Below are positions 5,607-14,215 of a stretch of DNA of 16,094 bases, piece by piece. The DNA comes from a virus. Numbering within the stretch: position 1 is the first letter of the stretch; each line of letters starts with the position of its first letter. Below the pieces are notes generated by a model. The model did no database searches, was not told the DNA's origin, and was given only the letters and a program-made list of their open reading frames with translations. The stretch lies in the UHGV virus genome UHGV-0121456. One strand, written 5' to 3'. The translations under genes and the position numbers were made by a program.

Positions 5607-6548
5607 TCACCCCCTGAATCCTGCCGGGATCTGGCTGTAGTCCACGTTGTCGTAACTGGCTTTGAAGTACGGGTCTTCGCGTTTTTCGGTGTACGTGCTG
5701 ACGGACGGCGATAAGCGCAGGGAAAGCTCATCCCATTTTTCCCGCAGCTTCGACGGGCTGAGCACGTTACGGCACCAGAACGGATCGCGGCTGACGCGGC
5801 TGTACATCTCGCAGATTTGTTTGTGAGTACGACCATCCTGCACACACATCAGGCGAATTTCGTTTGCCCAGGCTGTCCAGTTCGGTTCTTTGGGACGAAC
5901 CACCTCGCCGTCACATTCGGCGGCCTGCTCGTACAGGGCGATGATTTTTTTCCAGAGCCACTGTGCGCAGGTCAAATCATCCTGCGTTCCCCACTGGCGC
6001 TTTTTAGGGCTGAATACAACCGCATCAGGATGGCGAGTTAAAAAATCCTGTTCATCCGTCTGCGTGTCCGGTTGCGAAGCGTCCGGACGAGAAGGTTTTT
6101 TATCTGACGGATCATGTTTTGATTTTACTGACGGATCCCCGCCAGATTCTGACGGGTGAAAACCCGCTTTTTTGCCAGATTTCGACGCATCAAATTTTGA
6201 CGGGTCAGATTTTGATGCGTCAGATTTTGACGGGTCAGAATCTGACAGTTGAGAAAATGCCGCTGCCTGAAGCTTCGCAACGTTAAGCTGATAAACATTC
6301 GACGCATTGCGGTTACCCTGGCGACGCGCCTTACGCGTTAACCAGCCTTCTGCTTCCAGCCGTGCGATAGCCGTTCTGACGGTACTCATCCCCGCGCCAA
6401 TCTGACGGGCAATGGTTTCAATTGATGGCCAGCACACACCTTCGTCATTACTGAAATCAGCCAGGCGGGCCATAATTGCCACGCTGGATAATTTCATGCC
6501 TGACGCTGCGCAACCATCCCATACATAGCCGGTTAATTTAGTGCTCAT
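5607..6548 (-). CDS. Replication initiation protein (lambda O-like organiser): N-terminal helix-turn-helix, repeat-encoded linker, C-terminal domain
   Basis: N-terminus [70 protein letters not shown] is a winged-helix replication-initiator type. Internal SDPSKSDASKSDPSKFDASKSG repeats are encoded by DNA iterons. Position is cro-proximal. Confidence 0.7.
   Translation of the reverse strand: MSTKLTGYVWDGCAASGMKLSSVAIMARLADFSNDEGVCWPSIETIARQIGAGMSTVRTAIARLEAEGWLTRKARRQGNRNASNVYQLNVAKLQAAAFSQLSDSDPSKSDASKSDPSKFDASKSGKKAGFHPSESGGDPSVKSKHDPSDKKPSRPDASQPDTQTDEQDFLTRHPDAVVFSPKKRQWGTQDDLTCAQWLWKKIIALYEQAAECDGEVVRPKEPNWTAWANEIRLMCVQDGRTHKQICEMYSRVSRDPFWCRNVLSPSKLREKWDELSLRLSPSVSTYTEKREDPYFKASYDNVDYSQIPAGFRG
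6145..6253. repeat. Iterons (about 15 bp tandem repeats, ATTTTGACGGGTCAG-like): candidate replication origin inside the initiator gene
   Basis: Units at 6194-6208, 6209-6223 and 6224-6238, with degenerate copies at about 6145-6161, 6176-6193 and 6239-6253. A moderately AT-rich stretch lies at 6085-6125. Confidence 0.6.
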
Positions 6549-7688: not shown

Positions 7689-7778
7689 ACAATATGTACC
7701 TCCGGTGTACATATTACATGATTGAAATGAACCTTCAAGATACTTGTACCTTAACGGTACAAGGGTTTTAATTTCGTT
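7689..7778. promoter_or_regulatory. OR-like immunity region: two palindromic operators (7692-7714 ATATGTAC-N7-GTACATAT; 7743-7763 CTTGTACC-N5-GGTACAAG) overlapping divergent promoters
   Basis: Perfect 8 bp inverted repeats sharing TGTAC-N7-GTACA. Candidate pR on the minus strand: -35 TTGAAG (7738..7733), 16 nt spacer, -10 TAATAT (7716..7711). Candidate pRM on the plus strand: -10 TTTAAT (7767-7772) about 7 nt before the cI ATG, which would make cI mRNA leaderless. Confidence 0.55.
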
Positions 7779-8453
7779 ATGAAAACAATCCATGACATCC
7801 GGCGGTCTAACGCCAGAAAACTGAGAGATGGTGTTGGCGGGAATTCTTCCTTTGCCACTATGATTGATCGCGAGCCAACCCAGACCAGCAGGTTTATGGG
7901 AGATGGTGCTACTAAAAATATCGGTGACAGCATGGCACGACACATCGAAAAATGTTTCGACCTGCCTGTCGGATGGCTCGATCAAGAACACCAGACAACG
8001 AACATCACAAAAAAACCTGATGTTTCAATCACTAATAAACAAATCACATTAGTCCCTGTCATATCATGGGTACAGGCCGGAGCATGGAAAGAAGTTGGAT
8101 ATTCTGAGGTTGATTTGAGCACAGCAGAAACGTATCCCTGCCCTGTACCCTGTGGGGAAATGACTTATATCTTGCGGGTGATAGGTGATTCAATGATTGA
8201 TGAGTACCGCCCGGGAGACATGATTTTTGTCGATCCTGAAGTACCTGCCTGCCACGGTGACGACGTTATTGCATTGATGCACGATACAGGCGAAACCACC
8301 TTCAAAAGGTTGATAGAAGATGGGACACAGCGTTATCTCAAAGCGTTAAACCCAAACTGGCCTGAGCCTTACATTAAGATCAACGGTAATTGCTCTATAA
8401 TTGGTACAGTGATTTTCTCAGGAAAACCAAGAAGATACAAAATCAAAGCCTAA
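7779..8453 (+). CDS. cI: CI-type prophage repressor (helix-turn-helix plus S24 LexA-like autopeptidase domain)
   Basis: 224 aa. C-terminal GDSMIDEYRPGDMIFVD ... TFKRL holds the Ser/Lys dyad. Divergent from cro across the operator region. No strong Shine-Dalgarno. Confidence 0.85.
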   Translation: MKTIHDIRRSNARKLRDGVGGNSSFATMIDREPTQTSRFMGDGATKNIGDSMARHIEKCFDLPVGWLDQEHQTTNITKKPDVSITNKQITLVPVISWVQAGAWKEVGYSEVDLSTAETYPCPVPCGEMTYILRVIGDSMIDEYRPGDMIFVDPEVPACHGDDVIALMHDTGETTFKRLIEDGTQRYLKALNPNWPEPYIKINGNCSIIGTVIFSGKPRRYKIKA

Positions 8454-8492: not shown

Positions 8493-8536
8493 TTGACAAT
8501 GTACCTTTGAGATACATAATGTACCCAAGCGAAACA
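8493..8536 (+). promoter_or_regulatory. pL-like promoter with overlapping OL-like operator half-sites
   Basis: TTGACA (8493-8498), 16 nt spacer, CATAAT (8515-8520). TGTAC at 8500-8504 with ATACA at 8512-8516 (N7 spacing as in the OR operators), and a second TGTAC at 8520-8524. Confidence 0.5.
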
Positions 8537-8667
8537 ACGAACAGGCAGGACGCCCACGAAGTAGCCGCCTGAGGCATATGAAGTCCTAGATGATTCGTTA
8601 GCAACAAAAAAGCGCCCTAGTGCACGCTTCGCTCTTTAACAATCTGGATATCCACAACAGTAGCAAT

Positions 8668-9159
8668 CTACAGATTGCCGTTAAGTTTTCTGGACAACTC
8701 CTCAATGGATGGAGGCGATACATAATCTGGATTTTTATTCATCAGAAACTTATTTTCACAGTGGAGGCACCTGCTTTTATGAAAAAGCTCATCTTCGCTA
8801 ACCGGGAATGGTTGAAGTATCGATACTATCTTTTGTCCAAAACATTTTGGGCAAAGATGCATGGTTATGCTGCCACCGTTCACGATTACCTCCTTCGAGT
8901 ATACAAAAGTACCCGACTCAAGTTGGTTAAGGATATAGCCTTCCGTCTGAGCCTCAAAGTTTTCGAATTCTGCAATTTTAGCTTTGAGAGAAGCATTTAT
9001 TTCTTGATAAGAGCCCACCAGTTCAACGAGAGACACGCATTCGCGCTGAATAGACGCAAGCTTTGAGTTCAGCTCACCAATAGCCGCATTTACTTCAGCT
9101 TGAGTTTTTGCCTCGTTCATTAGTTTTGCAATCTGGGCTGTTTCACGAATAGCCGTCAT
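8668..9159 (-). CDS. Hypothetical coiled-coil protein with a C-terminal Cys4 zinc-ribbon-like motif (CPKC ... CLHC); candidate accessory gene next to cI
   Basis: About 163 aa from ATG at 9159..9157 (MTAIRETAQIAKLMNEAKTQAEVNAAIGELNSKLASIQ...); GTG at 9183 is an alternative start. The upstream part of the 259 aa track ORF looks like junk. AT-rich island on the strand opposite to cI. Confidence 0.55.
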   Translation of the reverse strand: MTAIRETAQIAKLMNEAKTQAEVNAAIGELNSKLASIQRECVSLVELVGSYQEINASLKAKIAEFENFEAQTEGYILNQLESGTFVYSKEVIVNGGSITMHLCPKCFGQKIVSILQPFPVSEDELFHKSRCLHCENKFLMNKNPDYVSPPSIEELSRKLNGNL

Positions 9160-9197
9160 TGCTGCCGTTAATTCAGCGATCACATTGAATACTCTTA

Positions 9198-9243
9198 TTG
9201 TTGTTGGGGATATCCAGATTAACCGAATCCTTGTTGTTGGGGA
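9198..9243. repeat. Two exact 13 bp direct repeats TTGTTGTTGGGGA (9198-9210 and 9231-9243) upstream of the zinc-ribbon gene
   Basis: Exact copies 33 bp apart, 40-85 bp upstream of the start codon at 9159 on the minus strand. Candidate regulator-binding sites. Confidence 0.5.
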
Positions 9244-9469
9244 ATAACCAGGTCCACCTCGCCTGATGTGGCTAAAAGCAGGCACATAACAGCTAAGTAT
9301 TTTCAACCAGAGAGAATCCTTAGCGTTGTGGTGAATGCGGCTCAGCGCACGCGGGTTAAGGTTGAGGCTGACAGTCGACCTTCTGTGGATACCCACCCGC
9401 CTGGTGTGCAACCTTCGCCAGGCACCGGGAGGCACCCGGCACCACAACTTTATGCTGTGTGTAGTCCTG

Positions 9470-9515
9470 GCGGTACCAGTTTGTACCCTTGCTTCCAGCT
9501 GGTACCGCTCTTTTT
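9470..9515 (+). terminator. Strong intrinsic terminator (tL-like) in the structured intergenic region
   Basis: 10 bp perfect stem gcggtaccag/ctggtaccgc (9470-9479/9499-9508) with a 19 nt loop, followed by tcTTTTTac. Confidence 0.55.
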
Positions 9516-9652
9516 ACAAAACAGAGAAGAGCATCACCGGACGACGGGCTCATAACCCAATCCATCCGGGCGGCTGCCACCGCAGGTGTTCTTCTCTGTT
9601 TTGTGGAGAAACCAACCGACCTTGCAGGGTCGATATGATGAGGAACAGCAAA

Positions 9653-10015
9653 ATGGCTAGCGAACGCAGTACTGATGTGCAGGCATTTATCGGGGAGCTG
9701 GACGGCGGCGTATTTGAAACCAAAATCGGCGCAGTTCTCAGTGAAGTCGCTTCCGGTGTGATGAACACGAAAACCAAAGGGAAGGTCTCACTCAACCTGG
9801 AAATCGAACCATTTGATGAGAACCGTGTGAAAATCAAACACAAACTCTCATATATTCGCCCGACTAACCGCGGGAAAATTTCCGAAGAAGACACCACCGA
9901 AACGCCGATGTATGTCAATCGCGGTGGTCGCCTGACTATTCTGCAGGAAGACCAGGGACAATTACTGACTCTTGCCGGTGAACCTGACGGAAAACTCCGC
10001 GCAGCAGGTCATTAA
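9653..10015 (+). CDS. yfdP: YfdP-like prophage protein (120 aa)
   Basis: ATG at 9653 with GAGGAA 7 nt upstream. The N-terminal extension in the track (from 9335) is Arg/Cys-rich junk. Symbol assigned from remembered size and synteny with the CPS-53/KplE1 yfdPQRST block, not from sequence recall. Confidence 0.55.
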   Translation: MASERSTDVQAFIGELDGGVFETKIGAVLSEVASGVMNTKTKGKVSLNLEIEPFDENRVKIKHKLSYIRPTNRGKISEEDTTETPMYVNRGGRLTILQEDQGQLLTLAGEPDGKLRAAGH

Positions 10016-12988: not shown

Positions 12989-14215
12989 ATGATTGATAAT
13001 GAAGTTAAAATTTTTGCAAAAGAAAAAGAAAAAATGCTGTGCAACAAACTTTCTTTTTACAGGGAGCATGCTCAATCGAGTGAAGATACAAGAAAAAGAA
13101 ACGAATTTGAACGAGACTATGCGCGTATTCTTTATTCCTCTTCGTTCCGCCGGTTACAGGGGAAAATGCAGCTCTTTGAAGTCGATCCTCAAAAATTTAA
13201 CCGTAATAGACTGACTCATAGCCTAGAAGTTGCCCAGATAGCCCGAAGCATCGCATCCGAACTAGAACTTGAACATCCTGTTGTAGCAGAACTGGCTGCA
13301 CTTGCTCACGATATTGGCAACCCTCCGTTTGGTCATTCCGGTGAAAAAAAGCTAAACGATATTGCTAATGATTTCGGCGGCTACGAAGGCAATGCACAGG
13401 CACTTAGAATACTCAGAAGTCTCGAGATAAAGCATCCAAATTGCCCCGGTCTCAACCTTACCCACCGTGCCATTCTCTCCGTCGTTAAATATCCTTATAA
13501 AAAGGAAAACGGCAGAAAAAAATATCTTTATAATGATGACTATAAATACTACACAGAATTGGTAAATAGATATGAATTAGATTTGCAGACTGGCGAGAAG
13601 ACCATTGATGCACAGATAATGGATCTGTCAGACGAAATTGCATATGCCGCGCATGACCTTGAAGATGCACTAAGCCGTAGCATGGTCAGTATTGAAGATA
13701 TTTTTTATGAGTTTGGGATATCCAAGTACAAAGACTCAATTGATTTATTAAATACAATCATTGAAAAATCTAAATATACAGCTTCGAGAGCATCAAGACT
13801 CAATTCATCTGAAGAGTTCGCCATAATATTCAGAAAGGAATTGACATCCAATATTGTTAATGCGCTTGTTAATGATATTACTGTTATTCAAAGTGAAAAT
13901 GGATTCAAGCAACTTGGATTTAGCACTACAAAAAATCTGTCTGCAGGCCTTAAAGATATCGTATTTAAAGTCATCATGCGAAAAAGAGATATTAAAAGTT
14001 ATGAGCACAAAGGAAACATTATCATCGAAGATTTATTTAATTTTTATAATTATAGAGATAACATAGAATTCATATCCCCTCAACTGTATAGAACGCTCCC
14101 AAATAAAATAGAGCCTATTTATCAAGAACTTAAAAAACGTGCAATTGTCGACTACATCTCTGGAATGATGGATACATTTGCCATCCGCGAGTGGGAAACG
14201 CATCACAAAAAATAA
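12989..14215 (+). CDS. dGTPase-family HD-domain deoxynucleoside triphosphate triphosphohydrolase (Dgt-like); candidate nucleotide-depletion defence gene
   Basis: 408 aa. Motifs RLTHSLEVAQIARSIA, HDIGNPPFGHSGE, YEGNAQALRIL, DLSDEIAYAAHDLEDAL, VDYISGMMDTFAIREW match E. coli Dgt signatures. ATG at 12989 with GAGAGG Shine-Dalgarno. Sits in a strongly AT-rich island between the xis-like gene and the integrase. Confidence 0.85.
   Translation: MIDNEVKIFAKEKEKMLCNKLSFYREHAQSSEDTRKRNEFERDYARILYSSSFRRLQGKMQLFEVDPQKFNRNRLTHSLEVAQIARSIASELELEHPVVAELAALAHDIGNPPFGHSGEKKLNDIANDFGGYEGNAQALRILRSLEIKHPNCPGLNLTHRAILSVVKYPYKKENGRKKYLYNDDYKYYTELVNRYELDLQTGEKTIDAQIMDLSDEIAYAAHDLEDALSRSMVSIEDIFYEFGISKYKDSIDLLNTIIEKSKYTASRASRLNSSEEFAIIFRKELTSNIVNALVNDITVIQSENGFKQLGFSTTKNLSAGLKDIVFKVIMRKRDIKSYEHKGNIIIEDLFNFYNYRDNIEFISPQLYRTLPNKIEPIYQELKKRAIVDYISGMMDTFAIREWETHHKK

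Follow-up and report, generated by a model that had tools for sequence, protein, structure and literature searches.

A conserved, structured tract with an STnc100/PasD-type RNA in the probable early-left leader of a lambdoid prophage without N

The window considered here is the whole analysed stretch of 16,094 nucleotides (nt) of the virus genome UHGV-0121456, and the subject is its tract at positions 9160-9652, directly upstream of the gene yfdP. A first-pass annotation, made from the letters alone, had described this tract as unusually long, GC-rich and highly structured, with no convincing open reading frame (ORF) over about 490 bp, and had offered a tL-type terminator with an antitermination or processing RNA in the manner of HK022 put sites, or a small RNA (sRNA) gene, as its possible content. 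The tract probably serves an N-less lambdoid prophage (e14/SfV/ST64B/mEp460 group) as the RNA-rich leader of its pL operon. Along the + strand it would then comprise, again with fair probability, the upstream region of a moron gene, a variant of the STnc100/PasD family (hairpin P0, a five-helix core, a linker and the stem-loop hp1), a second domain named hp2, and a small hairpin with the yfdP ribosome-binding site. Family membership, conservation and covariation of the helices, fixed position and orientation, lack of an own promoter by consensus scan and the non-coding nature of the tract are directly supported.

The GC-rich and strongly structured character of the tract was borne out. Relative to shuffles, the + strand of 9160-9660 folds with z = -5.8 and the - strand with z = -2.5, and the GC content is 54-57% across 9200-9650 as against 39-49% in the flanks. 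The RNA elements of the tract are the following.

About 9283-9515, + strand: STnc100/PasD-family RNA including its terminator, from the RF02076 match and helices P1, P2 and P5
9283-9324, + strand: 5' motif CACAUAACAG and hairpin P0 (9292-9324), -18.2 kcal/mol, z = -4.85
9325-9448, + strand: STnc100-type core (P1, P2, variable middle section, P4, P5), from the Rfam match; the minimum free energy (MFE) fold reproduces P1, P2, P4 and P5
9325-9333 with 9440-9448, + strand: P1, GUUGUGGUG with CACCACAAC, closing the core as N(4-5)GGUG...CACCN(4-5), then AAU
9337-9341 with 9347-9352, + strand: P2, GCGGC-UCAGC-GC(A)CGC, with pentaloop UCAGC and a bulged A
9399-9406 with 9416-9423, + strand: P4, from the MFE structure
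9425-9439, + strand: P5, CCGGG-AGGCA-CCCGG, with an AGGCA loop
9449-9469, + strand: linker UUUAUGCUGUGUGUAGUCCUG, conserved beside different cores and different terminators
9470-9515, + strand: intrinsic terminator hp1, with a 10-12 bp stem, a loop of 15-19 nt and UCUUUUU
9516-9604, + strand: three-way junction hp2, with an outer stem of 20 bp (9516-9535 with 9585-9604) and 30 unique variants
9537-9569, + strand: arm A of hp2, holding GGGCUCAUAACCC (9546-9558)
9570-9583, + strand: arm B of hp2, variable
9605-9652, + strand: tail GGAGAAAC, hairpin hp3 (9617-9632, loop UUGCAG) and Shine-Dalgarno sequence GAGGA (9640-9644) before the yfdP ATG at 9653, read from the sequences

At the Rfam gathering thresholds nothing is detected in the window. 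When permissive E-value thresholds were applied to a short stretch, 9295-9517 matched the STnc100 model (RF02076) from its first to its last position (1-206 of 206) with 46.5 bits (E 1.9e-8; cut-off 47), and the homologues of phiES15 and ST64B scored 40.6 and 35.1 bits with the same model. Since the element lies just under the cut-off, it is missed by Rfam-based annotation. Other weak Rfam matches (DicF, 15.7 bits, E 3.2, and models of microRNAs and small nucleolar RNAs) were at chance level and were discarded. The suggestion of an sRNA gene was thus right in kind: the first predicted stem of the tract is the terminator of the matched RNA and, judged by sequence, this stem with the RNA upstream of it is a variant, embedded in a leader, of the known STnc100/PasD family. 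The multi-copy prophage sRNA STnc100 is transcribed in enterohaemorrhagic Escherichia coli, and one of its copies there has been verified by Northern blotting (PMC5331693); STnc100 and PasD are related prophage sRNAs for which shared ancestry was recently proposed (bioRxiv 10.64898/2026.05.13.724894).

The fold of the core is kept among relatives, which exact-motif scans had retrieved from IMG/VR and from a set with one genome for each species. The invariant 3' block CACCGGGAGGCACCCGGCACC is unchanged in the window at 9423-9443, and in LLS the P5 stem is altered to GGUGG/CCACC with its loop kept. Covariation in P1 and P2 was assessed over 74 representatives. The positions flanking P1 covary (-1/+1: UA 48, CG 19, UG 5; -2/+2: GC 56, AU 9), and the flank cells are paired in 76.5% of cases as against 20-42% with a slid partner (283 observed vs. 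222 +/- 6.5 in shuffles, z about 9). In P2 the sequence changes (CCCCC/GGGGG, GCGGC/GCCGC, CCAGC/GCUGG, CCUUUC/GAAAGG and others), but a stem of 5 bp, a pentaloop UNNGC and a single bulged base are retained, the window having GCGGC-UCAGC-GC(A)CGC in place of the canonical CCCCC-UAUGC-GG(A)GGG. A covariance analysis across relatives had been named in the first-pass annotation as a way to check the tract, and it finds the P1, P2 and hp2 helices kept with compensatory changes. In mEp460, cdtI and Stx2c phages, a second core type, which we here name class II, GCGCAGGCUGAUGCGC...GCCGGAGAUCAGCACCGG, takes the place of class I before the same terminator. STnc100-type elements are also seen in tandem arrays of two to three different copies, approximately 200-270 nt apart (L127, L125, L174, L220, L192, L169 and others), and these arrays sometimes mix class I and class II cores.

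The assumed lack of a convincing ORF holds for the tract proper and fails for 9160-9183, where a minus-strand gene (8668-9183) has its 5' end. A real protein-coding gene spanning the tract was searched for and none was found, and an upstream in-frame extension of yfdP gave no family match. The tract has nevertheless been annotated as coding. The Prokaryotic Genome Annotation Pipeline (PGAP) places a frameshifted pseudogene ("frameshifted hypothetical protein") at 9328-9638, the stretch homologous to ymfH of the K-12 prophage e14 (L002, 2576-2887), and the small PHROG phrog_33599 matches residues 60-96 of e14 YmfH. These annotations are what favours a small YmfH-like protein with a frameshifted copy in the window, a reading that is largely refuted and that we regard as scarcely credible. 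Open stretches occur in all six frames, the longest frame changes among the window, e14, ST64B, LLS, phiES15 and the Klebsiella phage Kp4866-6, and no reading frame is common to them. In e14 the ORF owes its existence solely to the loss of 1 nt from the P5 hairpin, which is otherwise invariant (CCGGGGGCACCCGA vs. CCGGGAGGCACCCGG), the substitutions among relatives are compensatory in helices, and there is no Pfam match. Both the K-12 "ymfH" and the PGAP pseudogene are translations of the STnc100-type RNA, its terminator and hp2. Evidence for expression is indirect and concerns the e14 copy only: the "ymfH" region belongs to the YmfT iModulon together with e14 genes and was treated as part of an intE-xisE-ymfH operon (PMC12133099). 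Over-expression of "ymfH" was also reported to trigger RcaT, the toxin of retron-Sen2 (bioRxiv 10.1101/2020.06.22.160242), and this may be an RNA effect.

The terminator hp1 was described correctly at first reading. GCGGUACCAG (9470-9479) is perfectly paired with CUGGUACCGC (9499-9508) and is followed by UCUUUUU at 9509-9515; folded alone, its ten perfect pairs (seven of them G-C) give -21.3 kcal/mol, with z = -5.2 vs. shuffles. Among relatives the stem varies in sequence, and what is kept is a stem with a U-run (usually CCUUUUUAC) after it. The built-in terminator scan, with a loop limit of 8, omits hp1, and a wider home-made scan detects it. The anatomy is consistent with the tL-type terminator that had been supposed to lie between pL and the early-left genes.

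Upstream of the core, P0 is preceded in early-left copies by CACA(A/U)AACAG, and this 5' motif has two possible partners, namely GUUGUG at 9325-9330, which is also the 5' strand of P1, and the linker at 9453-9461. Pairing with the P1 strand covaries (CAAUGA/UCAUUG in L184, CAAUGG/CCAUUG in L219), and in the 234-nt MFE fold of the window the 5' motif (9283-9291) is paired with the linker UGCUGUGUG instead. The linker either acts as a seed or supplies the 3' strand of an outer helix that closes the structure, and its pairing with the 5' motif in the MFE fold suggests that it may be structural rather than a seed. Could the core work as a riboswitch-type attenuator, sensing a ligand or protein as an aptamer and so controlling the terminator beside it? 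The domain directly upstream of the terminator is complex, has several helices and invariant nucleotides at its junctions, and is highly conserved; in addition, the 5' motif offers the 5' strand of P1 an alternative partner that is conserved and covaries. However, the terminator differs in sequence, and the linker in length, without regard to the core, and swaps between class I and class II cores occur before the same terminator. We found no conserved anti-terminator pairing of the core with the terminator's 5' arm, and canonical family members stand alone with nothing downstream to control. We hold such an attenuator to be highly improbable.

Position and orientation separate the window element from the canonical members. 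Neighbours were identified by tblastn with the proteins encoded in the window, whose homologues were placed in 240 loci. The subtype of the window (P2 = GCGGC) has 52 copies, and all 42 copies with recognisable neighbours (42/42) are co-oriented, with a cI-like repressor upstream (median -1409 nt) and yfdP downstream (+323), yfdQ and yfdR being downstream as well. The 96 copies of the canonical subtype have Q, DUF968 or RusA upstream and the holin downstream, and 27 of 93 have the promoter TTGAC.-17-TA...T, whose -10 element ends about 8 nt before GGUGAAU. A promoter-like site adjoining P1 was found by consensus scan in none of 26 distinct early-left copies. Nevertheless, we file the window element as a variant of the family, as a stand-alone promoter and a late position describe the known members and not the RNA fold. 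CATAAC at 9285-9290 was considered as a -10 element and rejected, the same bases being in the conserved RNA motif that pairs with GUUGUG and no conserved -35 being present.

The same data bear on another possibility: a separate trans-acting sRNA gene that depends on Hfq, is transcribed from a promoter of its own, is expressed in the lysogen as canonical STnc100/PasD are, and uses the linker 9449-9469 as seed. The family has been described as Hfq-associated prophage sRNAs with seeds and with targets identified by RIL-seq, in which interacting RNAs are ligated and sequenced (bioRxiv 10.64898/2026.05.13.724894), canonical members have promoters of their own, the linker is conserved beside different cores and terminators, and the element finishes in a terminator with a U-tail. 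The sigma-70-like site expected at P1 is nevertheless missing from the early-left copies (0/26), and in several relatives the unit comes directly after another terminator, leaving no space for a promoter. In addition, the linker is predicted to be paired, and in a duplex scan of all translation-initiation regions in the window no target stood above the shuffled background (best -22.2 vs. -22.6 +/- 2.4 for shuffled seeds). An independent gene is accordingly an unlikely explanation, and an RNA embedded in the pL leader is preferred.

Immediately after hp1 comes hp2, and this second stem is also real. The 13 pairs first proposed sit within 15 Watson-Crick pairs (9516-9530 with 9590-9604), five more including G-U pairs extend them to 20 bp, and the domain has -46.2 kcal/mol and z = -6.4. 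The 30 variants, recovered with the arm motif, come from SfV-, ST64B-, Klebsiella- and LLS-type phages among others. Every one of them starts right after the U-tract of a terminator (...CCCUUUUUAC), and its end lies before GUGUAUGGAGAAAC and a small hairpin whose loop reads U(U/G)GCA(G/A). By RNAalifold and pair counting, the outer stem has four doubly changed positions; 94.9% of cells are paired as against 42-52% in slid controls, and the 12 double-sided changes compare with 4.1 +/- 1.7 in shuffles, a number reached by 0 of 500. The structure belongs to the + strand RNA, because its invariant U-G and G-U pairs are only possible there.

The best kept block of hp2 across the motif-recovered variants is GACGGGCUCAU(A/U)ACCCAAUCC, and in the window GGGCUCAUAACCC (9546-9558) is identical at 13 of 13 positions to nucleotides 29-41 of the E. 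coli initiator tRNA-fMet, that is, three G-C pairs and the CUCAUAA loop. The tRNA sequence was checked in E. coli genomes, where it matches at 100% and in a median of four tRNA-Met places per genome. ARAGORN found no tRNA gene (0); the anticodon stem-loop alone is copied. The arm A motif also occurs inside the P0 hairpin of another early-left lineage (L015 type), for which reason hp2 is taken as homologous to the P0 module, and the hp2 tail UUGUGGAGAA resembles the P1 5' strand UUGUGGUGAA. Related early-left leaders (L223, L229, L231, L029) carry tRNA T-arm-like hairpins (GUCCG-UUCAAUU-CGGAC, CUGG-UUCGAUU-CCAG) in P0 modules upstream of the core, and the pL leader of HK639 (L344, about 5700-5770) has a stretch resembling a tRNA 3' half that ends in CCACCA. 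Mimicry of tRNA parts seems to be recurrent in these leaders, and hp2 is, by its sequence, a real and conserved RNA domain with a copy of the initiator-tRNA anticodon arm.

Whether this copy acts as a mimic is a more speculative matter. It might serve as a decoy for toxins that cleave tRNA-fMet (for example VapC/MvpT of enteric bacteria), or tune early-left translation by binding the 30S P site, initiation factor 3 or methionyl-tRNA synthetase. The perfect match includes the three G-C pairs that mark the initiator tRNA and falls in the most conserved part of hp2, the equivalent module of relatives has the T-arm-like hairpins, HK639 has the 3'-half-like stretch, and the VapC of the ST64B and SfV hosts, Salmonella and Shigella, cuts tRNA-fMet (PMC7180214). 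All this support is sequence resemblance, however, and it has its limits: the stem below the three G-C pairs differs from the tRNA, position 37 is U in the ST64B and Klebsiella variants, the e14 loop is mutated and ARAGORN sees no tRNA-like gene. No phage anticodon-arm decoy is described in the literature searched. We therefore regard a functional mimic as doubtful, and give as little credence to the wider proposal that the early-left leaders of N-less lambdoid phages might be cassettes of tRNA-mimicking modules, linked to a new put-type class of protein-free processive antiterminators represented by an RNA motif close to pL.

The promoter and this motif are the following.

8493-8520, + strand: pL-like promoter TTGACA-16-CATAAT, overlapped by an operator-like half-palindrome, from a promoter scan (11/12 match)
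8537-8598, + strand: conserved RNA motif of 62 nt with outer stem 8537-8541/8594-8598, invariant AGGCAGGACGCCCACGAAGUAGC and a second covarying stem-loop

The pL-like promoter is the presumed source of the + strand transcript and so of the downstream RNA, and its promoter-plus-leader layout recurs in many relatives. The motif starts 10 nt after the predicted pL start site and carries a conserved GGCAUAYGAA loop; AGGCAGGACGCCCACGAAGUAGC and GAUGA are its long, single-stranded and invariant stretches. It has 103 unique variants in diverse temperate phages, nearly all of them just 3' of recognisable sigma-70-type promoters; 96.7% of its cells are paired vs. 23-45% in slid controls, 95 double-sided changes are observed vs. 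33.8 +/- 4.9 in shuffles, and the covariation score is 0.58 vs. 0.14. It has no Rfam match. It is present as a single copy in the window, with no putR-like second copy. By strict criteria, at least one co-oriented intrinsic terminator lies within 1.5 kb downstream of the leader motif in 41 of 94 loci, which is supportive and not decisive, and at least one or two terminators follow it in ST64B, SfV and the window. By analogy with put we consider this RNA a candidate processive antiterminator, and a better one than the two stems of the tract.

The absence of an N-like ORF, noted from the start, stands: between pL and yfdP the + strand has a single ORF (8620-9066), which matches no family and is antisense to the gene at 8668-9183. 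The authors of the LLS genome noted that N was missing and suspected put-like, RNA-mediated antitermination in this phage group (PMC12315714). No put-like RNAs are described for SfV or ST64B in the literature searched. A cis-acting antiterminator or processing RNA of the put kind had been proposed for the second stem, and hp2, or hp1 and hp2 together, is indeed a conserved and covarying RNA in the early-left leader of phages without N, the very group for which the LLS authors suspected RNA-mediated antitermination. It does not, however, resemble HK022 putL or the HK639 putL-like RNA, and comparison of hp1 and hp2 with the HK022 immunity region gave chance matches of 9-14 nt only. It also lies about 1 kb from pL, and it cannot suppress the terminator hp1 because it is always located after it; 8537-8598 is by far the better candidate in the position of put. 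The proposal was thus not upheld, and we give it very little weight. A role of hp2 in RNase III-type processing is plausible and is kept within our explanation of the tract as a pL leader.

A boxA-like CGCUCUUUAACAA lies at 8630-8642 on the + strand, where CGCTCTTTAACAA (8630-8642) matches the boxA consensus, and a 6-bp hairpin GCAATC-TACA-GATTGC is found at 8663-8678 on the same strand. The two could form a nut-like site or be a coincidence, and the same stretch doubles as the terminator of the minus-strand gene.

With the tract read as a pL leader, the following course of events can be proposed. Upon loss of the repressor, transcription from pL (8493) would enter the leader. RNA polymerase that is not termination-resistant would stop at 9509-9515 and release a structured STnc100-type RNA, which presumably acts like other members of the STnc100/PasD family. 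Termination-resistant polymerase would read through to yfdP-yfdQ-yfdR, the likely agent of resistance being the 8537-8598 RNA, as put is in HK022. In the read-through transcripts the 20-bp stem of hp2 would be a plausible RNase III or stability element in the 5' untranslated region (UTR) of yfdP, which is the weakest step.

Several points weigh against this account. The Rfam score is 0.5 bit under the curated cut-off. We infer termination, read-through, processing and any action in trans, as well as the 5' end of the RNA. A transcript from pL must cross approximately 500 nt in antisense orientation to the real gene at 8668-9183, the stretch 9184-9290 may contain a promoter that is weak or not of the sigma-70 type, and the long loop of hp1 (15-19 nt) may weaken it as a terminator. 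The linker has no target in the window and may be structural, not a seed. Finally, the 8537-8598 motif is unlike HK022 putL and the annotated HK639 putL-like RNA in sequence.

The surroundings of the tract are those of a lambdoid phage of the e14/SfV/ST64B type, and a prophage of E. coli 13P477T adjoining yjjG is 100% identical to the window. The further features are the following.

7779-8453, + strand: ymfK, LexA-like repressor, divergent from the cro-like ymfT
8668-9183, - strand: divergent moron gene, phrog_1244 (E 9e-60)
9184-9282, - strand: putative upstream region of the moron (5' UTR or promoter), a separate conserved module (query 1-108)

The gene order 3' of the tract is yfdP (9653; start taken from PGAP and phrog_204), yfdQ, yfdR, further genes and then the integrase. 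The stem of hp3, before yfdP, varies among relatives while its loop stays U(U/G)GCA(G/A). A palindrome CTTGTACC-TTAAC-GGTACAAG is found at 7743-7763 between the divergent repressor genes, and ATGTACC..GATACAT at 8503-8521, overlapping the pL-like promoter, is a half-match to it; both are likely operators of the YmfK repressor.

The tract is modular. Of 5426 complete E. coli genomes, 3096 contain parts of it and 1844 contain at least 80%, and the BLAST coverage classes of the 3096 genomes and 74 phage records break at approximately 9254 and 9468. The first 100 nt or so (9184-9291) move as a module of their own. A direct repeat TTGTTGTTGGGGA occurs here at 9196-9210 and 9232-9246, that is, just upstream of the moron when read on the minus strand, and may be an operator or a 5' UTR element. 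The HK639 pL leader has a similar repeat, CTGTTGGGGA, twice, beside the start of an apparent unannotated minus-strand ORF. The box CCACCUCGCCUGAUGUGGCUAAAAGCAGGC at about 9254-9290 has the look of a minus-strand moron promoter in e14-type relatives; its -10 element is not kept in the window, and LLS carries the box without the moron. Approximately 9184-9282 thus appears to belong to the upstream region of the moron and not to the RNA elements.

Two further observations concern other genes. In Salmonella phage ST64B an isrK RNA (RF01394, 64.3 bits, above cut-off) lies within sb41, a transcriptional regulator (L003, 21-97, minus strand). In the window, a dGTP triphosphohydrolase-family gene at 12989-14215 on the + strand, with a gap before it, is placed between the early-left genes and the integrase and is possibly an anti-phage defence moron.

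The consequences are of several kinds. The region is RNA, and in thousands of E. coli genomes it is mis-annotated as K-12 "YmfH" or as a frameshifted hypothetical protein. The STnc100/PasD family gains a second, leader-embedded lineage below the Rfam cut-off, which widens the question of the role of its scaffold. Phages of the SfV/ST64B/e14/mEp460/LLS type lack N and must pass several early-left terminators, and the locus supplies a covarying promoter-proximal RNA, a defined terminator 1 kb further on and a reporter gene. The copy of the tRNA-fMet anticodon arm, if functional, would be a new kind of phage-host interaction, in which translation initiation would be protected or steered by a phage RNA at an early stage of infection.

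Among known systems, the HK022 put and HK639 putL-like RNAs are likewise RNA elements in the early operons of lambdoid phages without N protein. The 8537-8598 motif shares with put the place just after pL, the size of approximately 60-70 nt and the two-stem character, whereas hp1, hp2 and the motif are all without sequence similarity to it. Moreover, hp2 lies approximately 990 nt after the pL start site, immediately after hp1, while put is promoter-proximal and upstream of the terminators that it suppresses. DicF, from the dicB operon of the Qin prophage, and StxS, from the pR'-tR' transcript of Stx phages, are RNAs that arise from within, or by early termination of, a controlled prophage operon and have no dedicated gene, and the window RNA can be likened to them. 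They have no sequence relationship to it, as the chance-level DicF score given above illustrates, and here the termination or processing step is a proposed one. In the thrS operator, a hairpin of the mRNA leader reproduces the tRNA-Thr anticodon stem-loop, as hp2 reproduces that of tRNA-fMet; however, hp2 copies an initiator tRNA, and the gene downstream is the phage gene yfdP. Hairpins cut by RNase III are found in early leaders such as the lambda N leader and the T7 R sites, and hp2 is similarly a long stem of about two turns between upstream RNA and the ribosome-binding site of the first gene, although it is a three-way junction with conserved arms, which a simple processing signal does not need. 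The closest likeness is to the canonical STnc100/PasD RNAs: the same P1-closed core followed by AAU, P2 with a UNNGC pentaloop and a bulge, CACCGGGAGGCACCCGGCACC, a linker and an intrinsic terminator, in an element that is prophage-borne and co-oriented with an antiterminated operon. In contrast to these RNAs, which lie between Q and the lysis genes, the window element is in the pL leader, has no promoter at P1, has GCGGC/GCCGC for CCCCC/GGGGG in P2, and carries an extra 5' hairpin P0 with the CACAACAG motif.

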